Below, in pieces: positions 46,480 to 63,992 of a stretch of 64,000 nucleotides of DNA; the first letter of the stretch is position 1, and every line of letters begins with the position of its first letter. Below the pieces are notes generated by a model, which made no database searches, was not told the DNA's origin, and was given only the letters and a program-made list of their open reading frames with translations. This stretch comes from a virus (taxonomy: Duplodnaviria > Caudoviricetes), in IMG/VR virus record IMGVR_UViG_3300028833_000101, positions 32,001 through 96,000 of that record; one strand, 5' to 3'. A program made the translations under genes and the position numbers.

Positions 46480-46508
46480 TTTACAAACTTCTTATTTAGT
46501 TGTATAAT
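46480..46508 (+). promoter_or_regulatory. SigmaA-type early promoter TTTACA-17-TATAAT (first in this cluster; series of about 16)
   Basis: The same architecture has -35 boxes at 47033, 48203, 48780, 49896, 50714, 54345, 56561, 59189, 60049, 60854, 61109, 61550, 62316 and 62923, and at 36211 with 16 nt spacing. Several have TTTACT and 50714 has GATAAT. Confidence 0.85.
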
Positions 46509-46527
46509 ATAAATAAAGGATTAAAAT

Positions 46528-47001
46528 ATGAACATTTATATTGCTGCAAGCTTTGCATATGAAGATAAAGCTAAAACCAGTCAAAAGAAAGACTTAATTG
46601 AAAAAACTGTCAAGAGAATTAAGAAGTTTTTAAAAGGCAATTATTACTTACCACATCAATTAAAAATTCCAAATGCTTGGGATATGAGTTTAGAAGAATG
46701 GTCAAAAGCTGTTTATGAGCATGACATGGAAGTACTAGAAAAAGCAGAAGTTGTAATTTTTCTAAGCTTTGGTAAAGAGAACAATGCCGGGTCGGCTTGG
46801 GAAATGGGGTATGTTCATGGGTTTAATCTACATGAACAAGTTCACTTTCAAAAAACAGTTATAGTAATAAAGATGACTGATGAGCCAGAAAGTCTTATGA
46901 TTAGTAATTCAGTAGATAGAATTATTATGAGTAATGAAATTGAAACTTATGACTGGAAGACATTTCCAAAATATAAAACAGTTTTAAACAAACTAAGTTA
47001 A
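46528..47001 (+). CDS. Nucleoside 2-deoxyribosyltransferase family protein
   Basis: IYIAASF, D..LEKAEVVI, GSAWEMGY. Confidence 0.85.
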   Translation: MNIYIAASFAYEDKAKTSQKKDLIEKTVKRIKKFLKGNYYLPHQLKIPNAWDMSLEEWSKAVYEHDMEVLEKAEVVIFLSFGKENNAGSAWEMGYVHGFNLHEQVHFQKTVIVIKMTDEPESLMISNSVDRIIMSNEIETYDWKTFPKYKTVLNKLS

Positions 47002-47080
47002 GATAATTAAATAAAGAAACTTGTAAAAACTATTTACAAGTTTCTTTTTTTGTGGTATAATATAAATGTGAGGTAAAAGT

Positions 47081-47518
47081 ATGGAAACTATTGTTAGAGA
47101 AAAAACAACTTATGGATTTGTTTTATTTGATAAATATATTTTATGTGATATTAAAACATATCCAGCAAATGATGTCAATTTTAGACGCTTAGATGAAATT
47201 GATAAGAAAAAAGCTAAAATCAGACAATACAATAGTTTAAAAGTTTTAAGAAAAGAAGTACCTGGACATTTACAACAATGGCGTTATTGGTTACCTAAAC
47301 ATAAAGAAAGTGAATGGCTTAAAGATAAAGTTGAACCTTGGTGGGACGAAATTTATACTTTAGAATCATTACTAAAAGAAGCTGGCTTTGGTGAAGCCGG
47401 TTTTGGTGGAATTGGTGCTTTAAGCAGCTGGCATGATACTGGCGCTTGGGAGTATTGTATTAAGCACAAGTATTTTAAAATTATTAAGATTAAAGAAAGA
47501 TTAATTTTTGAAGAATAA
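47081..47518 (+). CDS. Hypothetical early protein (paralog of 47823)
   Basis: Shares DKYILC and IRxYxSLKxL with 47823. Confidence 0.75.
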   Translation: METIVREKTTYGFVLFDKYILCDIKTYPANDVNFRRLDEIDKKKAKIRQYNSLKVLRKEVPGHLQQWRYWLPKHKESEWLKDKVEPWWDEIYTLESLLKEAGFGEAGFGGIGALSSWHDTGAWEYCIKHKYFKIIKIKERLIFEE

Positions 47519-47555
47519 GTATTTACAGACAAAAATATTTAGAAAGTAGATTAAT

Positions 47556-47819
47556 ATGAAAATTGAAATAGAAGTTAAATTTAATATTGATGATAAGGTG
47601 TTAGTTAAAAAGCCGCATAGTGGAAGCTATCAAAAACCAGAACCATTTATTGCAGTAATTGGTGGCTATACAATTACTAAAAATAAAAGATCAACTACAG
47701 TTAGATATACCCTGGAGCCACTTATTAATGATGGTTATTATCATTTTAATGCTGGTATCTCTGACTGGAACCGTAAAAAGAAATATAGTGTCAATGAATT
47801 AGAAAAAATTGAGGAATAA
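47556..47819 (+). CDS. Small SH3/KOW-like hypothetical protein
   Basis: KFNIDDKVLV...ELEK. Confidence 0.7.
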   Translation: MKIEIEVKFNIDDKVLVKKPHSGSYQKPEPFIAVIGGYTITKNKRSTTVRYTLEPLINDGYYHFNAGISDWNRKKKYSVNELEKIEE

Positions 47820-47822
47820 ATT

Positions 47823-48194
47823 ATGAAACATTTGCATAGAGAAGTTATTGGCTATACTGTTATCATTTTAGATAAATATATTTTATGTGGAACTGCTAAT
47901 AATTTACAATGGAAAGATTTAGAAAATTTAGGAAGAGTTAATATTAGGCACTATAAAAGTTTAAAAATTTTACTAAATAATTTATGGTATCATATGACTG
48001 ATTATGGTAGCAACAATTTTAAGTCTATACTAGATGCTGAGTTATCTAAAGCAGGATATTTAAGATACACAGGCTATTATGAAGTTACAGATTATCGTAA
48101 AAAAGAAGCACTTAATTATCTTATTGATGCCGGCTTACTTAAAGTTGTAGAATTACAAGAAAGTATTGACATTGAAAAAGAAGTTAAATTTTAA
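47823..48194 (+). CDS. Hypothetical early protein (paralog of 47081)
   Basis: DKYILC, IRHYKSLKIL. Confidence 0.75.
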   Translation: MKHLHREVIGYTVIILDKYILCGTANNLQWKDLENLGRVNIRHYKSLKILLNNLWYHMTDYGSNNFKSILDAELSKAGYLRYTGYYEVTDYRKKEALNYLIDAGLLKVVELQESIDIEKEVKF

Positions 48195-48252
48195 TAAAGC
48201 TATTTACAAATAAAGTAGTTTATGTTATAATAATAATGCGAGGTAAATTAAA

Positions 48253-48771
48253 ATGGAAATTAAACAAATTGATTGGTCAAGAATTAAACCTAGAATTGGC
48301 AGATGGGTAAGAACAGAAGCCCATGCTGGTCAAGTTAAATACGATTTAGAATCAGACTTAGCTGACCCTTATACTATTACACAATTTACAGTTGACTTTG
48401 AAGATGAAACTGTTTCTACTGGCTGGAGAGAAGAACTTAGTGGACATCAAGAAGAAGTACCATTAACTCCAGAAGAAAACTACGAAGCCAGACAAATGAT
48501 TTCTGATTGCAGAATTATTACTGTTAGCTTTACTATTAGACCAGGGTATGAAGACCTCGCTAAAAGACAATCTGAATATATGCTTGATGGCTATGATCTT
48601 ATTAAAGTTACTATGCAGGGCAATACTATTACATTTGAAGGCAATCATCTAAACTTAAGTGATGCTGTAGCTGATGGTCATATTTCAGAATGGGCTAATG
48701 AAGACCCTGAAGTAGAGATTGATGTTGCCTGTGGTATTGATAGAGCTAACGCAGGAAACTGGGATTATTAA
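48253..48771 (+). CDS. Hypothetical acidic early protein
   Basis: Intact ORF with its own promoter and GAGGT RBS. Confidence 0.75.
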   Translation: MEIKQIDWSRIKPRIGRWVRTEAHAGQVKYDLESDLADPYTITQFTVDFEDETVSTGWREELSGHQEEVPLTPEENYEARQMISDCRIITVSFTIRPGYEDLAKRQSEYMLDGYDLIKVTMQGNTITFEGNHLNLSDAVADGHISEWANEDPEVEIDVACGIDRANAGNWDY

Positions 48772-48836
48772 AAAAACTATTTACAAATAAAAATATTTGT
48801 GATATAATATATTTAGAAAGTTGAAGTAAATAAAAT

Positions 48837-49055
48837 ATGAAAAAAATTATTATTGTTTTGGCGAATGACTGCCTTCAAAGAGTCTACTCTGATGAAAAGG
48901 TCGAAATAGAAGTCATTGATCTTGGAGATGTAGATGAAGAGCACCCAACAAGAGTTCAAAAGAAGCAGCTTAAACAACTAGAAAAATTAGAAGAAGACGC
49001 TAGTTTAACTACCAAGTGTTGGTTCTATGATAACAAACCACTTTCTTATAAATAA
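48837..49055 (+). CDS. Hypothetical early protein (similar to 63307)
   Basis: Pattern IIIVL..CLQRVYSD..IEVIDL. Confidence 0.7.
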   Translation: MKKIIIVLANDCLQRVYSDEKVEIEVIDLGDVDEEHPTRVQKKQLKQLEKLEEDASLTTKCWFYDNKPLSYK

Positions 49056-49070
49056 CGCGAGGAAATAATT

Positions 49071-49736
49071 ATGGAAAAAGAATATCAAAAAATTGGAAAT
49101 GTATTTAAGTTCGACGAAAAGTTTAGAACTATTGTTGGGCTTAATGAACCATATGAAACATTAAAGAATATTATCTGGCAAGGTACTGAAAAGATTGACG
49201 GAACTAATATTCGTGTTCATTGGGATGGTCATGACATTGAGTTCGCTGGCCACACTGATAAAGCACAAATCCCACCAAAGCTTCAAGCTTATTTAGAGTC
49301 CGTGTTCAAAGTCCCAGAAATGGAATATATTTTTGAACAAGTCTTTGGTGAACCTGAAGCGTATATCTTTGGTGAAGGTTTTGGTGCTGGAATTCAAAAG
49401 TCTGGCGGAGACTATGTAGAAAACGGAACCGATGTTTCTTTCATTGTCTTTGATGTTCAAATCGATGGTTGGGACCTTGATAGAAAGAACACTACTGATG
49501 TTGCTACTAAACTTGGTTTACCTTCTGTCCCTGTCTGCTTTGAAGGAACTCTTGATGAAGCTAAAGCTTATGTTGCTGAACATCACATGTCTACACTTAA
49601 TGGTGGCAAGCATGAAATGGAAGGCTTGGTCTTAGTGCCTCGTGATATTCAACTCTATGACAAGAAACACCATCTTATTAAGTGCAAGTGCAAATACAGA
49701 GACATGGTTAGAGCTGGTCTTGTAGAGGAAAAATAG
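49071..49736 (+). CDS. RNA ligase (Rnl2-like nucleotidyltransferase domain)
   Basis: Motif I TEKIDGTN, FGEGFG, FIVFDV, EGLVL, KCK. Confidence 0.88.
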   Translation: MEKEYQKIGNVFKFDEKFRTIVGLNEPYETLKNIIWQGTEKIDGTNIRVHWDGHDIEFAGHTDKAQIPPKLQAYLESVFKVPEMEYIFEQVFGEPEAYIFGEGFGAGIQKSGGDYVENGTDVSFIVFDVQIDGWDLDRKNTTDVATKLGLPSVPVCFEGTLDEAKAYVAEHHMSTLNGGKHEMEGLVLVPRDIQLYDKKHHLIKCKCKYRDMVRAGLVEEK

Positions 49737-49738
49737 CT

Positions 49739-49867
49739 ATGATAGTTGGAATTATTGCAACTATACTTTTGTTTCTCTTAATTTCTGGTTGTATTATTAT
49801 TGGCTTTGCCGATGCTTGTGGAGAAGCAGCTGGTGAAGAAAGTATTTATTCTGGTGGCAAAGAATAA
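49739..49867 (+). CDS. Small membrane peptide (42 aa; absent from the track)
   Basis: MIVGIIATILLFLLISGCIIIG, directly after the ligase gene. Confidence 0.55.
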   Translation: MIVGIIATILLFLLISGCIIIGFADACGEAAGEESIYSGGKE

Positions 49868-49947
49868 AAAACTTTAAGAAATTTGTAAAAAAGTATTTAC
49901 AAGTTTCTTTTTTTATGTTATAATAATTATAGAAAGTTGGTAAGCTT

Positions 49948-50703
49948 ATGAATAAAGAAACATTTGAAACTATTAAAACAAATCTTGAAGCACGAGTAAA
50001 TGAATGTAAAGCACATTTAGACCATATCATCACAACTGATGATTTAAAAACTATTACAGTAGGTGAAGCACAAGAATTAAAAGCTTGGGCAAGTAAAGAA
50101 AGTGCTATTATGACTGAAATAGTTATGGTCGATTTTTATCATATCATTGGTATGGGTGAATTAACAGTTTTACAAACTAATACTTTTATAAAACTTATTA
50201 AAGAATACATGAGTTATCGCTCAGACCTTAAAACTATTGGTGCTCATTTCTCATTAGACAACTTACCAAATCTTCCAAGTATCAGTGAGTTTACATTAAA
50301 GCAACTTGGTAATATTACGCTCACTTCTAAAGTCCGTGGTAGAAATAAAGCTGCCTCTACTTTTATTGAAACAAATACAGTAGGTGACTATGCTAAAGCT
50401 TGCCAAGACCTTGCTAGTAGTATTACTGCTGATGGAGAATGTGGACCATTCAAAATTGAAGACAATACTATTACTTTACCAACTACTTCATTAAATGATT
50501 TTATTAAAGCTATTAATCCAAATCTTAGCCGAGGCAAAATTACTTCAGCTGCTTCTTATCAAAATAATACTGGAAAAGATTATGCTGATATTTTTTGGCA
50601 ATATACAAATGAAGAACATAATGAAATTAAAGCTGTTGTCTCACGAAAGAATGGATACTTTACTGGAATTAAAAATAAATTAAAAAATATTTTTGTAAAA
50701 TAA
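49948..50703 (+). CDS. Hypothetical early protein
   Basis: Intact 251 aa ORF behind an early promoter. Confidence 0.75.
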   Translation: MNKETFETIKTNLEARVNECKAHLDHIITTDDLKTITVGEAQELKAWASKESAIMTEIVMVDFYHIIGMGELTVLQTNTFIKLIKEYMSYRSDLKTIGAHFSLDNLPNLPSISEFTLKQLGNITLTSKVRGRNKAASTFIETNTVGDYAKACQDLASSITADGECGPFKIEDNTITLPTTSLNDFIKAINPNLSRGKITSAASYQNNTGKDYADIFWQYTNEEHNEIKAVVSRKNGYFTGIKNKLKNIFVK

Positions 50704-50762
50704 TTAATAATTGTTTACAAATATAATTTTATATGAGATAATATTAATGTGAGGTAAAAAAT

Positions 50763-51023
50763 ATGACTGTAAAAGAATACTTAGAAGTTCATAGTAGTAA
50801 AGATATTGAATCAATCGGTATTTATTCAGCTACTAAAATTAAGGATGCTTGTGATAGAGATACTGATGTTATTGATACTGATGTTCAACCTGTTGATTTA
50901 GTTAAATATTTAGAAAGAGAAGTTGACCATGTTAGCTTAGGTATCTTTGATGAAACAAGAAAAGCTATTGATGGAACAGACTACAATGCCAAGTTCATTA
51001 GAGCTTGTATTTATGTGAGGTAA
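50763..51023 (+). CDS. Hypothetical early protein
   Basis: MTVKEYL start, with promoter and GAGGT RBS. Confidence 0.75.
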   Translation: MTVKEYLEVHSSKDIESIGIYSATKIKDACDRDTDVIDTDVQPVDLVKYLEREVDHVSLGIFDETRKAIDGTDYNAKFIRACIYVR

Positions 51024-51028
51024 TAATT

Positions 51029-51517
51029 ATGTTTCCAGATTTATTAGATGCTCTTAGTGAATATAGTAGTTATTATACTAGTGATGTTGATCCAGAAGTT
51101 GAAGATGCTTTTAAAAGTATTCTTAAAAAAGTTTGGCATGAACACGCCACGAAATATATAGATAATACTGGAGATATTACTGGAGAAGCTCGTTCAATCT
51201 TAGAAAAAGCTTTACAATTACTTCACAAAAATAAAAACATTCATCTCAGATTCGATTTGAACTCTGAGAAGTGTAAAATGTATCAAATACAAGACCCAAG
51301 AAAGTTAAGCCCACAAACAATTTTACAATTAGAAGTAAAAGAAGGCTTAGATAAACAGTATATCAAAGCTACTATTAGTAATGAAGCTTTCACCGCTAAT
51401 TGGTTACCAACTGATGACTATGCTGGTATTTCAAAAAGAATTAAAGATTTAGATACCATAACTTATCGTGGTATTAGACTTGCTTATATTATTTATCAAG
51501 CAATTAAAGATAATTAG
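51029..51517 (+). CDS. LRxAY-family paralog 10 (early, TGG only)
   Basis: ILEKALQLLHKNKNIHL...YRGIRLAYIIY. Confidence 0.75.
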   Translation: MFPDLLDALSEYSSYYTSDVDPEVEDAFKSILKKVWHEHATKYIDNTGDITGEARSILEKALQLLHKNKNIHLRFDLNSEKCKMYQIQDPRKLSPQTILQLEVKEGLDKQYIKATISNEAFTANWLPTDDYAGISKRIKDLDTITYRGIRLAYIIYQAIKDN

Positions 51518-51521
51518 GAGT

Positions 51522-51860
51522 ATGAATATGTATAAAGTAAAATGTATCGCTGATGGAATGATTGTCTGGAAGGGCACTACTGTCATAGGAATTAAAGGTT
51601 TGACTTTGCCTGAGATGTTTAATGAATGTGATTGTGTAAAACTTCCAGGAAACGCTTTCGATTATTCACTTTCACCCTCTAATAAATATACAGAAGAACA
51701 ACTTGCTTTTATTAATAAAGCAGAAGCTGAGTGGGCTGAAGATGGTGGTGAAGAAATCGATCATGAGCCTGAGTATGGAATTAAGTATGGCGAAGATGAT
51801 GACGTCCCACTAATGGATTTATTTGGCCAAAGCATTCCAGACGATGACTTGCCGTTTTAG
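51522..51860 (+). CDS. Hypothetical protein with SSB-like acidic tail (DDDLPF)
   Basis: AGGAG precedes ATG 51522/51528. C-terminus IPDDDLPF. Confidence 0.65.
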   Translation: MNMYKVKCIADGMIVWKGTTVIGIKGLTLPEMFNECDCVKLPGNAFDYSLSPSNKYTEEQLAFINKAEAEWAEDGGEEIDHEPEYGIKYGEDDDVPLMDLFGQSIPDDDLPF

Positions 51861-51877
51861 CTTCAAAAGGTGAGAGA

Positions 51878-52105
51878 ATGAAAATAACAACTAATGAACA
51901 ACCTTTAATCATAGACTTAGAAAAAAATGAAACATTAACTATATCAAGTACAATAGTAATGATAAAGCATGTTTTTGATTTATCTTTGTACAAAACCGTC
52001 AGACTAAAAGTTTACAATAATATATTTATAGTTGAAGCTGAGAACAAAAATAATGGCAGTAAATTAATCAGGGCTTTTTCTGATACTTGGGGGTTTTCTA
52101 TTTAA
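51878..52105 (+). CDS. Hypothetical protein
   Basis: Intact ORF with AGGTG RBS. Confidence 0.6.
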   Translation: MKITTNEQPLIIDLEKNETLTISSTIVMIKHVFDLSLYKTVRLKVYNNIFIVEAENKNNGSKLIRAFSDTWGFSI

Positions 52106-52305
52106 TGAAAAATAAAGAAATAGTAAAAGCATTAAAGGGAAGTTGGAAAGACAAACCAGTAGAAGTTCTCGTTAAAATTGAGGGCGGACTATACTATCCA
52201 ATTAAAGAAATAGTCAAAAACAAGGATGGTACTTTTACTATTATAGGCAGAAACTTAACTGAGCATTCCGTCATAGGGCCTGCCAAATGGTATAAGAATA
52301 AATAG
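52105..52305 (+). CDS. Hypothetical protein
   Basis: TAATG-coupled to the previous gene. Confidence 0.6.
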   Translation: MKNKEIVKALKGSWKDKPVEVLVKIEGGLYYPIKEIVKNKDGTFTIIGRNLTEHSVIGPAKWYKNK

Positions 52306-52472: not shown

Positions 52473-52483
52473 TTGCTAAATTA
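52473..52483 (+). promoter_or_regulatory. Putative late promoter TTGCTAAATTA
   Basis: Head of the second paralog array. Confidence 0.75.
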
Positions 52484-52489
52484 TACAGA

Positions 52490-52918
52490 ATGAACAAAGA
52501 TTACAACCAAGAAAGATTTGACTTATTAGAAACTTTGAAGACAGATGTTGCCAGAATGATCAGACTTAAAGACCTGCCGGCAACCTGCCATTCTTTAACT
52601 GCAATTAGTGGAAGAGATGGTAGAACGGAGCTAGTATTGGAACTATTCGTCGACATATTAAATACAGAGAAAATCGCCCGAGTTTACTTATACATTACAG
52701 AGGACATTTTTGACCCAGATGGCTTTGAGTTTATAAATAGTGACATAGGTCTTGGAAATAAAAAAGTAGACACAAAAACCTTCATTAAACTTAGAGCCCT
52801 CAGAACAGTATACAATGTAATAAAAAACGTAAGCACTGGATATGCAAATGCAGTCGACCCAAATAAAATAATATATGTCAGAACACAAAAAACAGGTGTC
52901 TGTGATTATAGGAATTAA
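52490..52918 (+). CDS. LRxAY-family paralog 11 (divergent, near-leaderless)
   Basis: TDVARMIRLKDL...TFIKLRALRTVY. Confidence 0.68.
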   Translation: MNKDYNQERFDLLETLKTDVARMIRLKDLPATCHSLTAISGRDGRTELVLELFVDILNTEKIARVYLYITEDIFDPDGFEFINSDIGLGNKKVDTKTFIKLRALRTVYNVIKNVSTGYANAVDPNKIIYVRTQKTGVCDYRN

Positions 52919-52922
52919 TAGT

Positions 52923-53303
52923 ATGAGTTACCCATATAGACCACAAAAAGAATGAGACATAATAAATATAGTCAAGAAAGCAATCAGGACCTTAAATAAG
53001 AAAAAAGGGACTACTTTAAAGATGGCCAATATTAGCTTTGGTCAAGGTGTGGACAGCAAGTATGGTTCAGGACAATTAGATACCACAATAAGTTTAGTAG
53101 TGCAGGAAACAATAAGTAAAAGAATAATGAAGCTATTCTGATATGAAAGCTTCTTTAATCCTGACTTGCCTGATGATAAAGACGAAGTTTCAGGAGTAAA
53201 TAAAGTAAGTAATCCAGGAGACAAAGTATTGCTTAGAGTTGCTTACTGCATTTGGTTTGGCAGACACTGGATGTCAGCGCCACAAAAGAAAAATAAAAAA
53301 TAA
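52923..53303 (+). CDS. LRxAY-family paralog 12 (code 4; absent from the track)
   Basis: IVKKAIRTLNKKKGTTL...KVLLRVAYCIW. 2 TGA. Confidence 0.75.
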
Positions 53304-53313
53304 TGGTGATAAT

Positions 53314-53679
53314 ATGGAAATAAATAGTAAATATTCTACACTTATTACTTCAGCTTGTGAAAGGGTACAAAGAGTTAAAGGAATTAATGTTTTTCTTTCT
53401 AGTATAGAATTTTATGGTGTTCATAAATACTCGCATGACAATGTATATAAGATAAATCTTATAACCGATAATGGACTCCTTACTATCTATCAAGAAGAAG
53501 AAAACTTTAAGTATTGGGCTGATGTCCCATGGTCTGGCTTGGAAGAGTTTAGACCAGCAGACTTTGATAGCTGATCAGAATATAAGAAGTTAATGCTTGC
53601 TTGGTGCTGGGCAATTTATAAATACTGTAAAGACTGGGGAGACTACCAAAATACAACGCCACCACCAATTGAAGAATAA
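53314..53679 (+). CDS. LRxAY-family paralog 13 (divergent, code 4)
   Basis: LITSACERVQRVKGINV...KKLMLAWCWAIY. TGA at 53572. Confidence 0.65.
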
Positions 53680-53743: not shown

Positions 53744-53870
53744 GAGAAAAAGCTAAGGCAATTGCTATTGGCTTCTTTTTTAATAATTTAATAAAAAACA
53801 TTTGCTATAATTAATTGAAGGTTGTTAAAAAGGCCGAAATAGGTTTTTGGTCAAATATCCTTCTTTTTTT
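53744..53870 (+). ncRNA. Two putative late-promoter mini hairpin RNAs (53744-53781 and 53817-53870)
   Basis: CTGCTAAATTA at 53729 and TTGCTATAATTA at 53802 are each followed by a hairpin and T run, with no ORF. Confidence 0.45.
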
Positions 53871-53899
53871 ATACTCTTTTGCGCCGTATAATATAATGT

Positions 53900-54325
53900 A
53901 TGAATTTTAATATTATAGACCAAGCAATAAAATTAGTAAGAGATAAATTCAAGATAGATTTTACAGTCAGCCAGTATACAATACAGACGGACCCAGAAGA
54001 CATAACAATTGGCGGAGTTGCCCATCACATCTATAGAGAGCCAGAGCTTAGGATGAGTATCACTGTAGTAAAAGGTCGTAATTCTTGGACCAGCTATACA
54101 GACTTAGATTATGTGATATTCGGAAGCGACCTACGAGATGGAAGCTTGATAGATGAAATCATCGGTGGAAATATCAAAGGTTATGAATTAGACATGAGAC
54201 AAGCTCTGAGACTCGCCTTCATCATATATAATGGAATCCAGTATGGCGTAAGCGGAGAGATGAAAAAAGATTATATAGACAAAGGCTGGCATCCAAGAGT
54301 AGTAAGTTCAAGAATGAGGTATTAA
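53900..54325 (+). CDS. LRxAY-family paralog 14 (leaderless)
   Basis: IIDQAIKLVRDKFKIDF...QALRLAFIIY. TATAAT lies 7 nt before ATG. Confidence 0.72.
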   Translation: MNFNIIDQAIKLVRDKFKIDFTVSQYTIQTDPEDITIGGVAHHIYREPELRMSITVVKGRNSWTSYTDLDYVIFGSDLRDGSLIDEIIGGNIKGYELDMRQALRLAFIIYNGIQYGVSGEMKKDYIDKGWHPRVVSSRMRY

Positions 54326-54381
54326 AAAATATCTCATTTTTTTATTTACTTTTAAAGGCAACTATGGTATAATATAAATGT

Positions 54382-55536
54382 ATGAGTAAGATTATCGGAA
54401 CTTGTTTAGGAGAATATGTAAAAGAGGGAGATGTTTTATATGACCCTCAAACAGATACATATAAGATAAAGGCCGGAGATAGACTAGTGGAAATTGATGG
54501 CCACGTTTTGCAATCTGAAAGTCTAAGAACTTTACAGGAAGCCTTAAGCAATGTAGACGACGAAAACATTAAGATAGATATGTTAGGTAGTTGGGCTAAA
54601 GACCTCGACGCAAAATATAGAAGAACTTACTTAGGCGACTGGGGACCGGACAGAACAGATGAAGCTAAGACAGCAGTAGAGGCAGCGGCTGAGGCAGAAG
54701 CAGAGGCGAGAGCGAAAGCAAGGTTCGCAGAGGCGAGAGCGAGGATGTCAGAAGCGAAAGCAATGAGTAGCAAAACAGCGGCTGCGGCAGGTCCTGCAGG
54801 AGCGCCTTTTGACAGTCAGAGCTTCGACCCCTTGCGTGCGCGCGTTGAAGCCGAAACAGACTCTGGAGCCTGGAAGATAGATGGCCTCGGAGCCCGCATC
54901 AGACCAGTGGACACCGGAGACTGGAACGTCCGCTTCACCGATAAAGCCGCTGAGAAGCTTAGGGAGAACAGCGTCTACGGTAGTGGCGTCGGAACGGCAA
55001 GCCACACCTCCGCGCCCTGGGACGATCCTCTAAAGGACCAGATAGACAAAGCTAGTAATACTGTAGCTTGCTGCGACTTACCTGAACTAAAGCCTGACTA
55101 TAATCCTAATGATAAGGTGAAAGTATATTACCATGATAGATTTCCTTCTATACCTATTCGTTCTATAATAGATGACGCGATTGAATTACTAAATAATAAG
55201 AAAAATTTACATATATCTAAAATTTCTTTACACAATGAAAAATTCAGCGACAAAGACTATAGACTTGCGATATCCTCTAGAATTCCCGAAAGACCAGGAT
55301 ATATAAAGACTTTAGAAGTAGCAATTAATCATACGGCGTTCGACAGAGCCTACAAGACAGAGCTGGACGGATATGCCAAACTTAAAGCCAGACTTGATAC
55401 AAATACTTATATTAAACTTAGAATTGCTTTCTTACTATACCAGGCCTTGAAGCTGCGAGATGAAGACGCCAGAAAGATAAGCTTGGACATCTTTAGAATT
55501 ATAGGCAGCGATACAAGACCAGGATTTCACTTTTAA
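54382..55536 (+). CDS. LRxAY-family paralog 15 with long N-terminal extension and GC-rich Ala-rich linker
   Basis: C-terminal IIDDAIELLNNKKNLHI...YIKLRIAFLLY. Early promoter at 54345. Confidence 0.75.
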   Translation: MSKIIGTCLGEYVKEGDVLYDPQTDTYKIKAGDRLVEIDGHVLQSESLRTLQEALSNVDDENIKIDMLGSWAKDLDAKYRRTYLGDWGPDRTDEAKTAVEAAAEAEAEARAKARFAEARARMSEAKAMSSKTAAAAGPAGAPFDSQSFDPLRARVEAETDSGAWKIDGLGARIRPVDTGDWNVRFTDKAAEKLRENSVYGSGVGTASHTSAPWDDPLKDQIDKASNTVACCDLPELKPDYNPNDKVKVYYHDRFPSIPIRSIIDDAIELLNNKKNLHISKISLHNEKFSDKDYRLAISSRIPERPGYIKTLEVAINHTAFDRAYKTELDGYAKLKARLDTNTYIKLRIAFLLYQALKLRDEDARKISLDIFRIIGSDTRPGFHF

Positions 55537-56309: not shown

Positions 56310-56960
56310 AACTTCGTGCGTGTGCATACGTGGCGGCGCGCCAGTATTCTTAATCCTTAGAAGAATACCGTGCGTGGCCATGTGCGTGCGTATATACTAA
56401 AGCTTTCAAATCAGGGCGATTTCAAATGCTATGAAACTCAGGCAATTTCAAGTGCAGGTTAATAACAACTTATATATGATCTATCTATCTAACGATAGAT
56501 CATATATAAGCTATTTTGAAGCAGCTGTAGGTTAGCCCTGTAAAAAAGTTAAAAAAACTATTTACAACTGTTTACTTTTGTGCTATAATATTGTTATAAT
56601 GGGGGGTGTTTTTTTAAAAAAAATAAAAAACCCTGAAATCGGGATATTTTAGACTGTATAATATAATAGGGAATAAAATGAAATTGGAACAATTTCATTT
56701 ATGTGTGCGCAAGCACACACGTGTAATACTAAAAAAATTCAACCTAAATAAAATTCCAAATCAGGGTGTTTTTAATAATTTAATAAATTAATAATTTAAT
56801 GATTTAATGTTTTAATAAATTATTAACACATAAATTATATGTACATGAATTATCTATATTAATTCTTAGCTAATATTTTATAGCTATAGTAGCATAGCTT
56901 ATAATATATAGCTTATATATAAGCTTTTGGCGCCCGCACACATATGTACACGTGTACAGT
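56310..56960. other. Origin- or terminus-like non-coding region
   Basis: 17-bp perfect inverted repeat at 56469-56510, alternating purine-pyrimidine tracts, AT-rich 9-mer repeats, an orphan promoter and TTCAAATCAGGG-type repeats. Confidence 0.5.
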
Positions 56961-57003: not shown

Positions 57004-57309
57004 ATGGCAAATCCAGAACAAAAGAAGTGACCAGTCATCACTTGCCCACATTGTGGTTATCAGTATGCTCCAGCAGAGATATTCATGCCAGGAGATCTGA
57101 TTGGCAACCCAGAACAAGTTGTTAGAGATGCACTTGGCAAAATCATCTACCAAGAATATGATGAAGATAGTGAACCAGCACAAGTTGGGCACTACATCTG
57201 TGACGAGTGTGGAAAACCATTCATCGTGGAGCCAGTGATCACATATAAAGTCAAGAAAGAAGATGAGGCAAAAGATTTCAGTGATCTTTCCGCCAGCTTA
57301 CTAGACTAA
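57004..57309 (+). CDS. Zinc-ribbon protein (code 4)
   Basis: ATG 57004 follows AAGGAG. TGA at 57028. CPHCG and CDECG pairs. Confidence 0.75.
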
Positions 57310-57335
57310 TTTCAAATCAGGGAGATTTCGTTTAG

Positions 57336-59051
57336 ATGATCTACGTCAGAGAGATCGTTCCAAGAAAATTTTCCGGGCTAAGTTCATTCTTAGTCTCTTT
57401 TCAGTATGACCCAAAGATAGTAGAAGCGATCAAAACAGTTCCGGCCTACTACTATCACAAGAAAGATTTGTGCTGAGAGATTCCAAGTGACTATCTTGCC
57501 ACTCTTTTAGATACACTTACTTTCTTAGATAATATACAGTTGATAATGCTTCCTGAAACTGAGGTGATTCTAAACCAGGATGATTTCAGTTTGACCCAGG
57601 CGGAAATAGACCAACTTCATTTCAAACCATTTCCACATCAAGTAGATGCGATCAACTATGGCTTAAATCCGAAACACACTAAGTGGCTCTTACTAGACAG
57701 CATGGGCCTTGGCAAAACGTTAGAGATCATCGGATATGCAGAAACTCTAAAATCCAGAGGTCTTATCGATCACTGTCTCATTATTTGCGGAGTAGATTCA
57801 CTAAGACAGAACTGGAAATCCGAAATCGAGAAGTTTTCAAACTATGGTGTTAGAGTCTTAGGCGAATACATCACTAAGAATGGAACCATCAGATACAGAA
57901 CGATCCCAGAGAGAGCTGCGGAGTTAAAAGAACCAATCTCAGAATTCTTCGTAGTAATTAACGCAGCCACACTAAGACATGATGAAGTGATCGATGCATT
58001 TAAAAAATCTAAGAACAAGTTTGGTTTGATTGCAGTAGATGAAGTGCATCGCTTTGCATCATCAACATCGCAACAAGGCGACAACCTACTAAAACTAAAA
58101 TCTGATTACAAGGTTGCAGCTACAGGTACACTTTTACTAAATTCACCGATCAGCTGTTATGTACCTCTAGTGTGGACTGAGAACGATCATAGCATCTTAA
58201 CAAACTTCAAAGCTCAGTACTGTAAATTCGGCGGTTTTGGTGATAAACAGATCGTTGGATATAAGAATTTAGAGACACTGAGAGAAGAAATAAATTCTTG
58301 TATGATCCGAAGAACGTTGGATCAAGTGCGTGATGACATGCCACTAAAGAACATTACTTACCAGATAGTAGAAATGTCTGATCAACATCGTAAGTTTTAT
58401 GATGCTATAGTGGACGGTGTAAAATCAGAAGCTGATAAGATCAAGCTCAATACATCGAACTTACTTGCGTTAACCACTAGACTTCGCCAGGCTACAGCAT
58501 GTCCTAGTGTGCTTACCACTCAGAACATCGTAAGCTCTAAGGTCGAAAGAGCTGCGGAAATAGCTACAGATCTACTAGAGTCAGGCGAGAAAGTCGTAGT
58601 GTTCAGTATGTTCAAGGAATCTGTACAGGCTTTAGCTACGATGCTAGCACAGTACAAGCCGCTAATCTGTACAGGCGATTACACTGAACAGCAGATCAAA
58701 TCTAGTGTGGAAGCTTTCCAAAACGATCCAAATTCGAAATTACTGATCGGTACGCATCAGAAGATGGGTACTGGATTTACACTAAATTCAGCATCGTACT
58801 TGATCTGCATCGACACACCATGGACTGATGCTTCACTAAGCCAGTCTACAGATCGTATCTGGCGAATCACTAACAAGTATCCAGCATATGTTACCGTGCT
58901 TACTTGCGCTGATACTATTGATGAACGTGTTAGAGAGATCGTCGAAACTAAGAAGGATCTATCTGACTACATGATCGACGGTGTAGAGAATGAGCTCGCA
59001 GTTAGTGAACAGCTTTCGAATGAGATGCGCAGAATCATTCAGAACCTTTAG
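57336..59051 (+). CDS. SNF2/SMARCAL1-like helicase with N-terminal HARP-like domain (code 4)
   Basis: DSMGLGKT, DEVH, ATGT, GTGFTL, QSTDRIWR. N-terminal FQYDPKIVEAIK..C(W)EI reads through TGA 57474. Confidence 0.9.
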
Positions 59052-59243: not shown

Positions 59244-59462
59244 ATGACAGCAAAAGAAGAATTAAAAGAATATTTAAATTCAGCTGACCCACAAGATTTG
59301 GTTGACTGTTTGAAAGAACATTTAGAAAAAGATGCTACTGATAAAAAGCATTTCGAAATGATTTCGATACTATATTGGAATGAAAAAAATACTTTTAATA
59401 CTTTAAGTGCTGGATGTAAAGCCTCAATACTAATTTACCTAGCAATGAGAAACAGAGGATAG
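59244..59462 (+). CDS. Hypothetical early protein
   Basis: Promoter at 59189 and AGAGAGG RBS. Confidence 0.7.
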   Translation: MTAKEELKEYLNSADPQDLVDCLKEHLEKDATDKKHFEMISILYWNEKNTFNTLSAGCKASILIYLAMRNRG

Positions 59463-59466
59463 TAAT

Positions 59467-60045
59467 ATGGGAAAAGATACATTAAAAGTTATTGGTGCTT
59501 CAAATCACTGTGATGAAGAACGTTCCAAGTTAGACTATTACGGAACTGACCCGCGTTCAACTAAAGCATTATTAAGCGTAGAGAAATTCGACCACGAAAT
59601 TTGGGAACCATGTGCTGGACACCACTTAATGGTCAATACACTTATCGAAGCTGGATATCATGTGCTGGCTACTGATATCGCTGAGTACGAAGGCGTTCAA
59701 CATGCTAAGATGAACTTCCTAGATATAGAAGGTTCCTGGGATGGAGATATCATTACAAACCCACCATATGGACTATCAACTGACTTCGCTGTTAAAGCAC
59801 TTGAATTGGTAAAGCCTGGACACAAAGTTGCGATGTTTCTGAGAACTTTGTTCTTAGAAGGCACCAAGAGATATGAGAAACTCTTCAGTGTCAACCCACC
59901 AAAAACTGTTTATGTCTTCACGAACCGCCAAGTCTCAGACAAAAATGATGATTTCAACAAAGGCTCTGCAGTATCATACAGCTGGTTCGTCTGGGAAAAA
60001 GGATATCAAGGTCCAACTGAAATTAAGTGGATTTCAAGCAAATAA
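59467..60045 (+). CDS. Putative N6-adenine DNA methyltransferase
   Basis: DYYGT, IWEPCAG (motif I), IITNPPY (motif IV), YSWFVW. Confidence 0.85.
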   Translation: MGKDTLKVIGASNHCDEERSKLDYYGTDPRSTKALLSVEKFDHEIWEPCAGHHLMVNTLIEAGYHVLATDIAEYEGVQHAKMNFLDIEGSWDGDIITNPPYGLSTDFAVKALELVKPGHKVAMFLRTLFLEGTKRYEKLFSVNPPKTVYVFTNRQVSDKNDDFNKGSAVSYSWFVWEKGYQGPTEIKWISSK

Positions 60046-60083
60046 GGGTTTACAAAACCCTTTTTTTGTGCTATAATATAATT

Positions 60084-60260
60084 ATGAAACAGAAGATTAA
60101 GATTATTGACAAAACTACTGGCAAGGTTCTTGAGAAAGAAGTGGAAATTCGAAATCAAGATCATTTCGAAGTGCAACTTAGAACTCGTGCACATATTTTT
60201 CGTAATCGCAAAGCGTATAATAGAAAGAAGAAGCACAAACATGCAAACGAAGAAGATTAG
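60084..60260 (+). CDS. Small basic protein with ArfA-like C-terminal motif (leaderless)
   Basis: RAHIFRNRKAYNRKKKHK. ATG lies 6 nt after TATAAT. Confidence 0.65.
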   Translation: MKQKIKIIDKTTGKVLEKEVEIRNQDHFEVQLRTRAHIFRNRKAYNRKKKHKHANEED

Positions 60261-60435
60261 TATTGAACTTACAGAAGATGAAGCTAAAGTAGTGTCGGAT
60301 TACCTATTCAGAAAAGCTTGCAAGCTAGAAGATGCAAATTTGACTGACTCTTACTGTTATCCAAGACTATATTCTGCTTATCATAAGATTAACAGAGCAA
60401 TGGGAGATGACAAGGATGGAAATGGAACAAATTGA
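60241..60435 (+). CDS. Hypothetical protein (ends at TGA; in code 4 it would run to TAG at 60462)
   Basis: MQTKKISIELTEDEAK start. Confidence 0.65.
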   Translation: MQTKKISIELTEDEAKVVSDYLFRKACKLEDANLTDSYCYPRLYSAYHKINRAMGDDKDGNGTN

Positions 60436-60847
60436 TTTATCAGATCCAAAAAAGTTTTTTAGCGAACTAGTAAAGAAAGCATTAGAAGGAAAACAATCTA
60501 ATTTCGAATTTATCCGAGATCTTGAAATGCTTAAAGTAGCAAGGCTCTACAAAATCGGAACAAGAAAAGTATTTAGAGTGTTTAAGAGTTTGCATAAAGC
60601 TTTAATAAAAGTGTACGCTAAAGATGTTCTGACAGATGAACAAAAACTAGAAATGATCATGTCAATAAAGCAATTTGAAATCTGCTGCGAATATTATAAA
60701 AAAGAATGTGCAATCGCGAAAGACATGATTTCAGAATATAAAACTTATGTGTTTAGCGGACATATCTTAGCACAGTTATTCTTCAACGGTGTGCGACCAG
60801 ACAATGAATGTGTAGACTATAGAAAATTACCTTGGAAATTATTTTAA
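60407..60847 (+). CDS. Hypothetical helical protein (start may be 60422)
   Basis: Intact ORF. AAGGA lies before ATG 60422. Confidence 0.7.
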   Translation: MTRMEMEQIDLSDPKKFFSELVKKALEGKQSNFEFIRDLEMLKVARLYKIGTRKVFRVFKSLHKALIKVYAKDVLTDEQKLEMIMSIKQFEICCEYYKKECAIAKDMISEYKTYVFSGHILAQLFFNGVRPDNECVDYRKLPWKLF

Positions 60848-60902
60848 AAAGCATTTACAAACATGCACTAACGCGTTATAATATTATTAGGAGAAAAGAA
60901 TA

Positions 60903-61100
60903 ATGAAAGTTCAAAGTTCGACAATTTCAGAAATTAATTACGACGGAAACCTTCTTACTATCTCGTTCACGAATGGTAGAGAATATGTCTATGAAGGTGT
61001 GCCAGCCAGTATCTATGAGGCTTTCACTCAAGCGGACAGCAAAGGAAAGTATTTCCACGAGAACATTAATTATCGATACAATTATTCGAGAATTAAATAA
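60903..61100 (+). CDS. KTSC domain protein
   Basis: VQSSTISEINYD..L.I.F.NGREYVYEGVP..SKGKYF. Confidence 0.9.
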   Translation: MKVQSSTISEINYDGNLLTISFTNGREYVYEGVPASIYEAFTQADSKGKYFHENINYRYNYSRIK

Positions 61101-61191
61101 AAAAACTATTTACAAATAATTAAAAACGTGTTATAATAATAATGTAAAGAGTGAATGGCGACACTCTTAAATAAAACGGAGGTAAACAAAA

Positions 61192-61503
61192 ATGGCTAAA
61201 ACTTACATGACTGGTTGGGGAATGCGTGGAGAACGCACCGCAAGAGGTGGACGCGATGGTGTCCAATGTGCTGCACAATCTTATGATGGCAGCGTGATCG
61301 TTAGCAACAGATATGTTGAAGATGAGAATGGAAAAGAACACTTAGAGATTCGTGTTGGAACAAACGACGGTTCGAGTTGTTATTCTGACTGGAGCTCAAA
61401 CGATTTCAATGGAACATTTGAAGAGTTCAAAGCATTACTCAAACTCAATAAAGAAATTAAAGAAGGCAAAGTTTCTGTGGTAAGACACAGAATCAAGCGA
61501 TAG
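61192..61503 (+). CDS. Hypothetical early protein
   Basis: Promoter at 61109 and GGAGGT RBS. Confidence 0.75.
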   Translation: MAKTYMTGWGMRGERTARGGRDGVQCAAQSYDGSVIVSNRYVEDENGKEHLEIRVGTNDGSSCYSDWSSNDFNGTFEEFKALLKLNKEIKEGKVSVVRHRIKR

Positions 61504-61600
61504 ATTCCTCTCTTTCTGAAAAGTTGGTCTGTAAAAGATCGACTTTTTATTTACTTTTTTTCTAAAGCGTGTTATAATATTATTAGAGAGGTAAAGAGAT

Positions 61601-62017
61601 ATGAAAAATAAAAACTTAGCAAAACAAGAATATCTTGAAATGATTAAACAGTCCTGGACTTGGGCTAAACTTACAGAAGAGGAAAGAAAAAAGTTTTCGG
61701 AGTTATTAGAACATCCTTGTTCTGCAGTAGTTATTAAAGGAAACTACGATCAACGTTGGGAAGCTTGTGAAGCTTTATACCATACTTATTTAGAAGGACT
61801 TGGATATGACCCACTTCATTGGCGTGAAGGTATGGAAGAGCCTAGCGAAACAACTTATTATGAAATTGACTATAAATGCCACGGTGTAGAACAAAAACCG
61901 TTGACACTTACTGATGTCATGCAGGCTAGACGTTTGCATTCAGCTTTGAAAACTGACAGTAGAAATACAGATGTGAAGTTAATGAGAATTAAGATTATCT
62001 CGAGTGAGGTAAAGTAA
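61601..62017 (+). CDS. Hypothetical early protein
   Basis: Promoter at 61550. SWTWAKLTEEE motif. Confidence 0.75.
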   Translation: MKNKNLAKQEYLEMIKQSWTWAKLTEEERKKFSELLEHPCSAVVIKGNYDQRWEACEALYHTYLEGLGYDPLHWREGMEEPSETTYYEIDYKCHGVEQKPLTLTDVMQARRLHSALKTDSRNTDVKLMRIKIISSEVK

Positions 62018-62018
62018 G

Positions 62019-62306
62019 ATGAGCTATTATAAAGTTAAAACTACATCCGTTGATTACTGTGTTGAAGAAGAAGATATTTGTGACACTTTTGAAGAGCAAC
62101 ACCCTGAAGTAGAAGTAGACAGTGATGAATATTGTGAAGCTATCGATGCTGAAGTTACTAGACTTAAAAATAGTTTGCCACAGACGCTGGAACTTGAAAT
62201 AGAGTGCGATCCAGAAGACCTTGACGATATGGTTTGCGATGCTATCAGTGAGGAAACTGGTTGGCTTGTCAATAGCTTCACCTATGACATTCTTGAACAA
62301 AAATAA
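62019..62306 (+). CDS. Hypothetical acidic protein
   Basis: C-terminal DAISEETGWLV, a motif common in small phage proteins. Confidence 0.75.
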   Translation: MSYYKVKTTSVDYCVEEEDICDTFEEQHPEVEVDSDEYCEAIDAEVTRLKNSLPQTLELEIECDPEDLDDMVCDAISEETGWLVNSFTYDILEQK

Positions 62307-62370
62307 ATTAAAGGGTTTACAAAACCCTTTTTTCGTGATATAATAATAGTATAAGAGAGGTAATTAAAAT

Positions 62371-62886
62371 ATGGAATTAAATGGAAAAACATTAGAAGAA
62401 GTATTAAACACTGAATTAGTTGGTAAAGACGTTGGTTATTCACATTGGAACTTTACTGGTGCATTGTTAAAGGTTCTTCGTATCTTAGCGAAAGAGGCTG
62501 GTCTAAATGAAAATAATTTCAGTTATAAAACCCAAGGCACAAACTCAGTGTATCTTACTTATAAAAATATAAGTTTTGGTGATGCTACATTTCAAAAGCA
62601 AAAAGGCAAATATAAATACGGAAGTTATGAATGGACTTTTAAGAAAGTTTTCGTTAATCTTTGGAATGAAGACGGTTATTCAAGTTATAAGGGTTTAACT
62701 TTCTTAGACATGATTGCTAAGATCAATGAAGAGTTAGATGTTAAGAAAACTAGAGAACAAGCCAAACTTGAACAAGCGAAGAAAGTATTTCAAAAGATTA
62801 AAGAAGAGATTGGTGCCAAAGACGATTATGAGGTTACAAACTTCATTGAATATATGAATAAAAACAGATATTCACTTCGTCAATAA
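62371..62886 (+). CDS. Hypothetical early protein
   Basis: Promoter at 62316 and GAGAGGT RBS. Confidence 0.75.
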   Translation: MELNGKTLEEVLNTELVGKDVGYSHWNFTGALLKVLRILAKEAGLNENNFSYKTQGTNSVYLTYKNISFGDATFQKQKGKYKYGSYEWTFKKVFVNLWNEDGYSSYKGLTFLDMIAKINEELDVKKTREQAKLEQAKKVFQKIKEEIGAKDDYEVTNFIEYMNKNRYSLRQ

Positions 62887-62977
62887 TTCTTGCAAAAATT
62901 AAGTAAATTGTGTAAAAAACAGTTTACTTTTTTATTAAAACGTGATATAATTATAATAGAGAGAGGTTAAGAGAACT

Positions 62978-63307
62978 ATGAAAAAATACTTAATTCATTT
63001 TATGAGTGTTGACACCCCAAGCGTTGAGGACGATGGTATTAGTGCTGGCACAGGGTTTGGAATTCACCCACAAGCATTTGACTCAAAAGAAGATGCACAA
63101 AAATACTTGGAAGAAACTTTAATTCCAGAAGACCAAGCCAACTTAGAAGATTGCTACGGAATTACTGATGATCCTGAACTTGCTGACAATTATGAGTTTT
63201 CAGTTGAAGACGGTAGTTATGATAGAAAGCAATTAGTTGTTTATGACGCGTTCGACGGAAATGAACTTAATACAACTATCTATGAAGTCGTGGAGGTTGA
63301 ATTCTAA
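62978..63307 (+). CDS. Hypothetical acidic early protein
   Basis: Promoter at 62923. Confidence 0.75.
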   Translation: MKKYLIHFMSVDTPSVEDDGISAGTGFGIHPQAFDSKEDAQKYLEETLIPEDQANLEDCYGITDDPELADNYEFSVEDGSYDRKQLVVYDAFDGNELNTTIYEVVEVEF

Positions 63308-63480
63308 TGAGAACAGTTTATGTTGTCATCAAAGACGGAATTATTCAAGATGCTTATGCAGATCATCTTACTGATTTAGTGGTATTAGATTACGATACTC
63401 AAGATGAAGAAATGATTAAGCAACTTGATAAAGAACTTGCTAAGATTAAAGAAAGCAATGATTGTATTGAAATTCTTTAA
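63307..63480 (+). CDS. Hypothetical protein (57 aa, similar to 48837; absent from the track)
   Basis: TAATG coupling. MRTVYVVIKDGIIQDAYAD..VVLDYD. Confidence 0.7.
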   Translation: MRTVYVVIKDGIIQDAYADHLTDLVVLDYDTQDEEMIKQLDKELAKIKESNDCIEIL

Positions 63481-63493
63481 GAGGTAAGAAAAA

Positions 63494-63736
63494 ATGGAAC
63501 AAAGCATTTTAGATCAAGAAGAATTAAACAAAAGAGCCGATGAAGTATTTGACTTAAGTATCGGCGATTATGTCTACGATGTGTTTGTAGAAGATAATGG
63601 CACTGTCAGAATCCCAATGCGAGAACTTAGTGATTTAGACGGCGACTATGTTGACTTCGATTATAAACCTGATATGACAGAAAGACCAGAAGCATTAGAT
63701 TATCTAATGGGAAAGAGAGACGATTTCAATGACTAA
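63494..63736 (+). CDS. Hypothetical acidic protein
   Basis: GAGGT RBS and intact ORF. Confidence 0.7.
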   Translation: MEQSILDQEELNKRADEVFDLSIGDYVYDVFVEDNGTVRIPMRELSDLDGDYVDFDYKPDMTERPEALDYLMGKRDDFND

Positions 63737-63992
63737 GATTTATATTGTAGTAGATGCTTGTAGCGGTGAAGATTATAGCACTGATGATCCAACCATTCTT
63801 TGTGTGGATACTAATGAAGAACGTGCAAAAGATTTCTTTGAGGAAGAAATTGAAAACTGGGAAGACGGAATGACTAACTTCGATTCCAATACCACAGAGC
63901 ATTATGGTGAAACCAAGTTAGTTTATGAATGCACTGACTATGAAGGTGACTCACATAGAGTAATGAAATTAGTTGAAAAAGAAATTCAATAA
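63729..63992 (+). CDS. Hypothetical acidic protein
   Basis: Small phage protein pattern KIYIV...EERAK...EKEI. Confidence 0.7.
   Translation: MTKIYIVVDACSGEDYSTDDPTILCVDTNEERAKDFFEEEIENWEDGMTNFDSNTTEHYGETKLVYECTDYEGDSHRVMKLVEKEIQ

Follow-up and report, generated by a model that had tools for sequence, protein, structure and literature searches.

Phages whose early genes are compatible with the standard genetic code, whose late genes are recoded and which make their own suppressor have been described by Borges et al. (bioRxiv 10.1101/2021.08.26.457843; later Nat Microbiol 2022). That study reports a tryptophanyl-tRNA synthetase (TrpRS) together with release factor 1 (RF1) in the 'Jade' phages, and recoded blocks arranged in mosaics in Jade, Sapphire and Agate phages; the same late-recoding concept is put forward for crAss-like phages by Yutin et al. 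2021 (PMC7886860). The word 'promoter' is absent from the Borges et al. preprint. The present analysis concerns the relation between promoter type and the use of TGA as a tryptophan (Trp) codon in a 64,000-nucleotide window, bases 32001-96000 of the 104,702-bp virus record IMGVR_UViG_3300028833_000101 (G000), in which nearly all genes lie on the + strand. Positions are those of the window unless marked as genome positions. The concept itself is already published and no new principle is claimed. What the analysis adds is that the two codes are tied to explicit promoter motifs, that this correspondence is conserved, holding also in two complete recoded relatives (G001 and G005), and that the capsid gene is free of TGA in three recoded genomes; the published model of the 'code switch as a timer' thereby gains resolution at the level of promoters. 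The explanation we favour, with a probability of roughly 0.78, is that TGA has been captured as a Trp codon only in genes that are translated once a decoding system supplied by the phage is present.

The source is a low-GC jumbo myovirus of gut or rumen type with a genome of about 220 kb, of which the contig holds just under half (CheckV completeness 46%); it is collinear with G001 from 3.9 to ~93 kb. The major capsid protein (MCP) has 57-93% identity to 66 IMG/VR loci, among which both recoded and standard codes occur, and 30% identity to capsid proteins of Bacillus and Listeria myoviruses. Judged by the traits described for Jade (size, change of TGA to Trp, a clade of mixed code and a TrpRS-RF1 module), the family is very probably Jade or a close neighbour. 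Like Jade, with genomes of ~200 kb (complete members of the present set have 201-233 kb), it reads TGA as Trp, has scattered recoded structural modules and combines standard-code and recoded members in one clade; in G001, a TrpRS-RF1 module written in the standard code lies directly upstream of a recoded cassette, and Firmicutes hosts have been proposed for Jade. The Jade module comprises TrpRS, RF1 and a suppressor tRNA, whereas the module of G001 has no detectable tRNA and the G000 contig has no such module.

The late-recoding Agate and crAss-like phages (TAG or TGA) resemble the present family in that recoding falls mostly in late genes for structure and lysis, the early and replication genes fit the standard code, and the phages encode suppressor tRNAs (here, in relatives), but they belong to different lineages with other genome sizes. 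The crAss-like phages have Bacteroidota hosts and a virion RNA polymerase, in contrast with the sigma-A-like promoters and strong Shine-Dalgarno sites seen here. Native code 4, as in Mycoplasmatales and Entomoplasmatales, likewise assigns TGA to Trp by means of a tRNA whose anticodon is UCA (here again in relatives); in those organisms TGA is used genome-wide and release factor 2 (RF2) is absent, whereas here one temporal class of genes is kept free of TGA. With regard to transcription, the closest likeness is to the late promoters of T4 (TATAAATA, read by gp55): a single A+T-rich element of ~15 nt, without a -35 element, stands ahead of virion operons, and the phage is a myovirus whose capsid and sheath are T4-like. 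The element has another sequence (TATTTGCTAAATTA), a homologue of gp55 was not found and the candidate factor is a divergent sigma-like early protein. The likeness is a functional one only.

Two promoter types had been proposed by a sequence-only reading of the window, and their counts bear this out. The string TTTACA-N17-TATAAT has 11 matches in the window against 0.13 expected; ten are on the + strand, all within 46.5-62.3 kb, and most carry an extended -10 (TGnTATAAT). With a -35 hexamer, a 17-nt spacer and a TATAAT -10 element ahead of genes on the coding strand, these sites appear to be of the sigma-70/sigma-A type. The late motif TTGCTAAATTA has 9 matches against 0.22 expected, eight of them on the + strand (seven at 1.1-36.4 kb and one at 52473). 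An extended late consensus, tttTATTTGCTAAATTAtatGA, was derived from 46 sites in three genomes and shows an A+T-rich tract upstream and no -35 element. Both motifs are found almost solely on the coding strand, in intergenic positions, and often right behind a terminator hairpin. The sites are as follows.

46480..46508, + strand: first of ten early-type promoters TTTACA-N17-TATAAT (sequence match, placed ahead of genes)
47033, 48203, 48780, 49896, 56561, 60049, 60854, 61109 and 62316, + strand: the other nine early-type matches
1114 (1114..1124), 3496, 16737, 27508, 31989, 32071 and 36411, + strand: late motif TTGCTAAATTA, in the late block
52473..52483, + strand: late motif TTGCTAAATTA inside the early block, directly after a terminator

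Relatives that use the standard code carry both promoter motifs too, and the temporal programme is therefore older than the recoding.

The meaning of TGA was deduced from alignment with standard-code relatives. Residues opposite the TGA codons of G000 are Trp in 79 of 111 cases, and at 21 of 32 TGA sites Trp is aligned more often than any other residue, compared with 55 of 70 TGG sites. Glycine never stands opposite TGA, which excludes code 25. When TGA is counted as Trp, the Trp content of late genes rises from 0.6% to 1.2%, against 1.5% in early genes, and the coding density of G000 is 0.93 under code 4 as against 0.81 under code 11. On these sequence comparisons, TGA is read as Trp (code 4) in the late genes.

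Each gene of the whole 104.7-kb contig was assigned to a class by the nearest upstream motif. The 45 genes of the early class contain 7 raw TGA and 101 TGG codons, and the 59 genes of the late class 133 TGA and 143 TGG (Fisher p = 2.4e-16); the claim that operons behind the late motif are rich in TGA is thus confirmed, and the difference extends across the contig. Of the 7 raw early-class TGA codons, four lie upstream of an evident start, one is at an orthologous stop position and two are true sense codons. Restricting the count to the first gene after each motif gives 1 TGA to 45 TGG (early) and 18 to 28 (late) in G000, 4 to 31 and 45 to 14 in G001, and 0 to 10 and 86 to 18 in G005. In frame +2, TGA has a similar frequency in both classes (65 vs 74 per 1000 codons); since out-of-frame TGA is equally common, the depletion in early genes is specific to the reading frame and is not compositional. 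The genes that the sequence-only reading had singled out as early (46.5-52.3 kb, 54382 and 59.2-64 kb) were said to use TGG throughout and to end almost only in TAA or TAG. They hold about 56 TGG and no sense TGA, with all stops TAA or TAG; two raw TGA codons in this set (gene 47066, codon 2; gene 60332, codon 4) are upstream of the likely true starts. For early genes elsewhere, the wider claim of freedom from TGA stands in the main, given the contig-wide counts, but not without exception: the zinc-ribbon and SNF2 genes, which lie within the region covered by the sequence-only reading yet outside its early set, have one sense TGA each. Promoter class, and not map position, predicts the use of TGA.

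'Code-neutral' stops were tried as a further signal of early genes and rejected, as 0-1 TGA stops in 45 early genes are indistinguishable from the low use across the family (TGA ends 8 of 142 genes in the standard-code relatives). In 5-kb bins, G001 and G005 are both mosaics of TGA-rich and TGA-poor blocks. At ~155-170 kb of G005 (reverse-complement coordinates) lies a giant gene of several thousand codons with ~100 in-frame TGA and 39 TGG.

Matches to PHROG and Pfam families between genome position 14 kb and window position 27 kb comprise terminase, portal, prohead protease, MCP, adaptor, sheath, tube, baseplate hub and tail fibres. From 46.5 kb to the end of the contig there are small ORFans together with a nucleoside deoxyribosyltransferase, an RNA ligase, a methyltransferase-like protein and an SNF2 helicase. 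The gene blocks and islands of the window are listed below.

1..46433, + strand: late (virion) block, with sheath 1189, tube 2806, baseplate hub 3726, tail fibres 11226 and 24033, and a cluster of LRxAY paralogues at 32099-35989; about half of its Trp codons are TGA
36211..36400, + strand: early-type promoter unit within the late block (N16 promoter, a 41-codon open reading frame at 36275-36400 with TGG, a terminator-like hairpin, then the late motif at 36411)
46528..52305, + strand: early gene block 1, with nucleoside 2-deoxyribosyltransferase 46528, RNA ligase 49071, LRxAY paralogue 51005 and small ORFans; 32 TGG, 0 sense TGA, all stops TAA or TAG
52490..53679, + strand: late island of three genes behind the 52473 motif, two of the three containing TGA
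53868..55536, + strand: two genes (53900-54325; 54382-55536) with a -10 element 8-9 nt before the ATG; jointly 7 TGG and 0 TGA
57004..57309, + strand: zinc-ribbon gene with one sense TGA, at codon 9
57336..59051, + strand: SNF2-family helicase with 1 TGA (codon 47) and 5 TGG
59244..63992, and on to the contig end at genome 104.7 kb, + strand: early gene block 2, including a DNA-methyltransferase-like gene at 59467; 19 TGG, 0 sense TGA, all stops TAA or TAG

The arrangement provides natural controls: early genes surround a late island that contains TGA, the members of one paralogue family are spread over both classes, and recoded as well as standard-code sister genomes can be compared. In the island, gene 52490-52918 has no Trp codon, the LRxAY paralogue 52875-53303 has 2 TGA and 2 TGG, and gene 53314-53679 has 1 TGA and 5 TGG. 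The N16 variant at 36211 is the sole early-type site within the late block. Since an island with TGA stands behind a late motif in the early block, and a TGG unit behind an early-type promoter in the late block, TGA tracks the promoter and not the position. The LRxAY family, with 12 genes found by jackhmmer, gives the comparison by paralogues on which the sequence-only reading had relied, and it holds: the early copies 51005 and 54382, the latter with the domain at its C-terminus, have 7 TGG and 0 TGA, and the late copy 33670 has 5 TGA and 0 TGG in 114 codons. With regard to the two genes that depart from the pattern, there is no other start between the codon-9 TGA of the zinc-ribbon gene and its conserved CPHC motif, and the codon-47 TGA of the SNF2 helicase aligns with Trp in the recoded G005 as well as in standard-code relatives.

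More than half of the phage genome is missing from the contig, and in relatives the tRNA clusters and translation genes sit in that part; we infer that the genes by which G000 changes its own code are also there. Seven relatives were examined for the components of such a system.

G005, recoded, 223 kb with direct terminal repeats: tRNA(UCA) and a TrpRS-family synthetase
G001, recoded, 232 kb, rated 100% complete: adjacent TrpRS (TIGR00233, 324 bits) and RF1 (prfA, 467 bits)
G011, recoded, 230 kb: a 96-nt tRNA(UCA) at L154:2900-2995 (-)
G010, partly recoded, 201 kb: RF1
G002, G003 and G004, standard code, 220-233 kb: 17-33 tRNAs each

At least one component (tRNA(UCA), TrpRS or RF1) is present in all four near-complete recoded relatives, compared with none of the three standard-code ones, in which all three components were searched for and none was found (one-sided Fisher p = 0.03). 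This restriction of the toolkit to recoded relatives would be expected if the phage imposes the change on a standard-code host, and not if the host natively uses code 4. The tRNA(UCA) of G005 is an ordinary tRNA of 75 nt that forms its own unit, right behind a TTGACG-N18-TGTATAAT promoter and followed by a terminator; the synthetase of this genome (PF00579) is 59% identical to the TrpRS of G001. The TrpRS-RF1 pair of G001 is free of TGA and lies within a TGA-poor stretch; it is followed by a terminator, the motif TTGCTAAATTA and genes with 9 and 3 TGA. Searches for the missing half with RF1 and with a TrpRS alignment returned only G001 and G005, and an exact search of viral contigs with the anticodon arm of the G005 tRNA returned only unrelated tRNA-Sec-like genes and G005 itself.

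A candidate for the factor that would read the late promoters is encoded at genome 99146-100045, outside the window: a conserved 299-residue early protein behind an early promoter at genome 98779, with no match in Pfam or PHROG. In a Foldseek search with its AlphaFold2 model (predicted local distance difference test score, pLDDT, 79.6), sigma factors account for 49 of the 50 best matches, but with E values of 8e-3 or weaker. Residues 25-135 of the model superpose on sigma region 2 of sigma-E, sigma-W, sigma-K and sigma-A at 2.6-3.5 Å (Z 7-8.2). From this modelled fold, the protein may be a late sigma-like factor, and we regard it as a lead and not as a demonstration. The gene itself (genome 99146-100063; L003:4146-5063) has TGA at codon 300, exactly where the G001 and G005 orthologues and most sampled database homologues (299 residues) stop. 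This TGA most plausibly ends the gene, and a TAA five codons further on would serve as a back-up stop. One homologue (P0011) has Trp at the position of codon 300 and six further residues.

The host is probably a member of the Bacillota, because the promoters are sigma-A-like with an extended -10, the Shine-Dalgarno sites are strong, the capsid has affinities in that direction and the phage TrpRS is nearest to Bacilli-type enzymes. The lack of TGA in early genes, the TGA stops of sister phages and the restriction of the toolkit to recoded members speak indirectly for a host with the standard code, in which recoding looks to be driven by the phage. In such a cell, host RNA polymerase with the main sigma factor would read TTTACA-N17-TGnTATAAT, and the early mRNAs, without in-frame TGA, would be correctly translated. 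The phage would then supply a tRNA(UCA) that suppresses opal codons, joined in some lineages by TrpRS and/or RF1, all written in the standard code. In relatives, these genes lie behind host-type promoters or adjoin late cassettes. A phage factor, possibly the sigma-like early protein, would shift transcription to the single-element late promoters (TATTTGCTAAATTA). The late mRNAs have TGA at ~48% of Trp positions, and portal, terminase, sheath, fibres and most other late proteins would be completed only if suppression outcompetes RF2.

A number of results weigh against this explanation, in whole or in part. The sequence-only reading had TGA suppression switched on in mid-infection, which is now doubtful: the suppressor tRNA of G005 stands behind a host-type promoter, so that suppression could operate from the start of infection, and the TrpRS-RF1 pair of G001 is in a TGA-poor stretch. 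It is more likely, on this reasoning, that suppression builds up from early infection. The idea that late genes are in addition locked at translation is upheld only in part. Essential late genes do contain TGA (terminase 6, portal 3, sheath 1, fibres 18 and 5), but 21 of the 59 late-class genes have none, including the protease/scaffold, MCP, adaptor, tube and hub genes, and TGA is not biased towards the 5' ends of late genes (mean relative position 0.51, vs 0.57 for TGG; p = 0.11). On the whole 46%-complete contig, ARAGORN and Rfam detected no tRNA or known RNA, and neither a TrpRS nor a release factor gene (RF1 included) was found. In G001, which is recoded and rated complete, ARAGORN detected no tRNA(UCA) even with relaxed settings, so a suppressor tRNA is not guaranteed for G000 either. 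Sequence searches of four genomes of the family revealed no Sigma70_r2 domain, and the match of the candidate protein to sigma factors is only moderate for a helical protein (VIA Z 7-8.4).

The partition may have arisen as a passive by-product and not as a selected timer or lock, a reading to which we give somewhat less than an even chance; it involves the same decoding mechanism, and only the adaptive interpretation differs. A+T pressure would turn TGG to TGA wherever this is tolerated, and purifying selection would clear TGA from genes translated before the suppressor is available and from the most heavily translated late genes. The lack of a 5' bias and the many TGA-free late genes speak for this, as does the MCP gene, with 0 TGA and 4 TGG in G000, G001 and G005 alike; its freedom from TGA suggests that suppression has a cost in translation for the gene that is expressed most heavily. 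Shared orthologues differ, too, in how far they are recoded: the adaptor has 0 TGA and 5 TGG in G000 vs 4 to 1 and 3 to 0 in the relatives, and the TGA share of promoter-proximal late genes is 39% in G000 vs 76% and 83%. The absence of a 5' bias and this rise from G000 to G001 and G005 are explained by a mutational ratchet no less well than by a designed gate, and both promoter classes were present already in standard-code relatives. Against a wholly passive origin, TGA in essential late genes amounts to a functional block whatever its origin, and the position of the TrpRS-RF1 pair of G001, directly upstream of a heavily recoded cassette, suggests organisation. The most abundant virion protein resists recoding. 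The family is a good test bed for regulation versus mutational ratchet.

The favoured explanation, capture of TGA after a phage-supplied decoding system is in place, has further to be compared with readings in which that system is different or absent. We think it unlikely that TGA was recoded without a suppressor tRNA of the phage's own, through weakened termination by RF2 and near-cognate decoding by tRNA-Trp(CCA), aided by the phage TrpRS and RF1. Low-level readthrough of UGA as Trp is reportedly natural in Bacillus subtilis. G001 would be the model case, being complete and strongly recoded, with TrpRS and RF1 and no tRNA(UCA) detected, and Borges et al. (bioRxiv 10.1101/2021.08.26.457843) found suppressor tRNAs in no more than 35-40% of the recoded phages. 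However, two other recoded relatives, G005 and G011, encode tRNA(UCA), unusual or intron-split tRNAs are easily overlooked, and no anti-RF2 factor has been identified. If the tRNA-less state of G001 is true, TGA can be reassigned by manipulating termination and charging alone. Little credence is likewise given at present, as a whole, to the combined proposition that the code is tied gene by gene to promoter identity across genomes with 73-76% MCP identity, with an interchangeable toolkit (tRNA only, tRNA with TrpRS, or TrpRS with RF1 and no suppressor tRNA).

A host that natively reads TGA as Trp (code 4, for instance a Mycoplasma-like lineage of Bacilli), with no switch at all, is very improbable. 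The best bacterial matches of the phage TrpRS, at 47-54% identity, come from Bacilli, Anaeroplasmataceae and Erysipelotrichaceae metagenome-assembled genomes, whose own TrpRS genes have too few Trp codons to show their code, and the contig is without a suppressor. In such a host, however, there would be no reason for ~100 early Trp codons to avoid TGA at 31% GC, nor for recoded relatives to carry tRNA(UCA), TrpRS or RF1 when standard-code sisters have none; moreover, sister phages use TGA stops, and one early gene of G000 has TGA at an orthologous stop position. The abrupt shift in codon usage near 46.4 kb might also suggest an assembly chimera of a recoded phage (0-78 kb) with a standard-code phage (78-105 kb), which can practically be dismissed: the gene order from the late block to the SNF2 early block is shared with G001 and G005, LRxAY paralogues lie on either side of the boundary, a TGA-bearing island with a late motif stands inside the early block, and G005, whose genome has direct terminal repeats, is partitioned in the same way.

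Further tRNA-related elements were noted in the relatives. The candidates for a tRNA(UCA) in G001 that relaxed or intron-aware ARAGORN searches gave were spurious, one having its 5' half built from coding sequence, and at the TrpRS-RF1 locus of this genome nothing tRNA-like emerged from a permissive Rfam scan. Elsewhere in G001, L099:1501-1561 (G001:206885-206945) is a 61-nt tRNA-like element that has acceptor, D and T arms and lacks an anticodon arm; Rfam scores it as tRNA (E = 4e-8), with no call by ARAGORN. The tRNA(UCA) of G011 has a long variable arm in which a GGCCG/CGGCC hairpin carries the loop AGUCCAAAC, and this loop repeats a tRNA-Trp-like CCA anticodon loop. In G010, a tRNA-like gene at L130:10230-10305 (-) has a 6-nt anticodon loop, CUCAAC; one added U would give CUUCAAC, with a UCA anticodon. 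Transfer-messenger RNA (tmRNA) acts on stalled ribosomes, and tmRNA genes are present in the recoded relatives G001 (L089:1091-1496) and G011 (L155:3756-4129). Several tRNA genes of G002 (L135), G004 (L131) and G003 (L132) have predicted introns of 60-120 nt in the anticodon loop.

Lysis genes were not recognisable among ten further late proteins checked. At the end of the LRxAY cluster, 35994-36194 encodes a 66-residue protein with two predicted hydrophobic helices, holin-like by eye; the gene has 3 TGG and no TGA, though it lies within the late block. In four places the -10 element or late motif ends 6-9 nt before the ATG, with no Shine-Dalgarno site (52473-52492, 53886-53902, 54368-54384 and genome 22609-22628); from this spacing, such units may give rise to leaderless mRNAs.

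Between the genes of 53868..55536 and the zinc-ribbon gene is a gene-poor stretch of 1.4 kb (55560-56940) with a higher GC content (0.36-0.41) and palindromes. Beyond short promoter-like stretches, the non-coding sequence at 55.5-56.9 kb shows no conservation in G001 or G005. It contains a minus-strand unit with a TTGTATAATATAG promoter near 56250-56262 and a terminator near 55960-55990, and the predicted minus-strand RNA would hold ACCUCCUUUC (complement of 56043-56052), which resembles the 3' tail of 16S rRNA. The sequence TTCAAATCA(G/A)GGnG(A/T)TTT occurs in four copies, at 56405, 56755, 56981 and 57311, of which the last two form the ribosome-binding regions of the zinc-ribbon and SNF2 genes.

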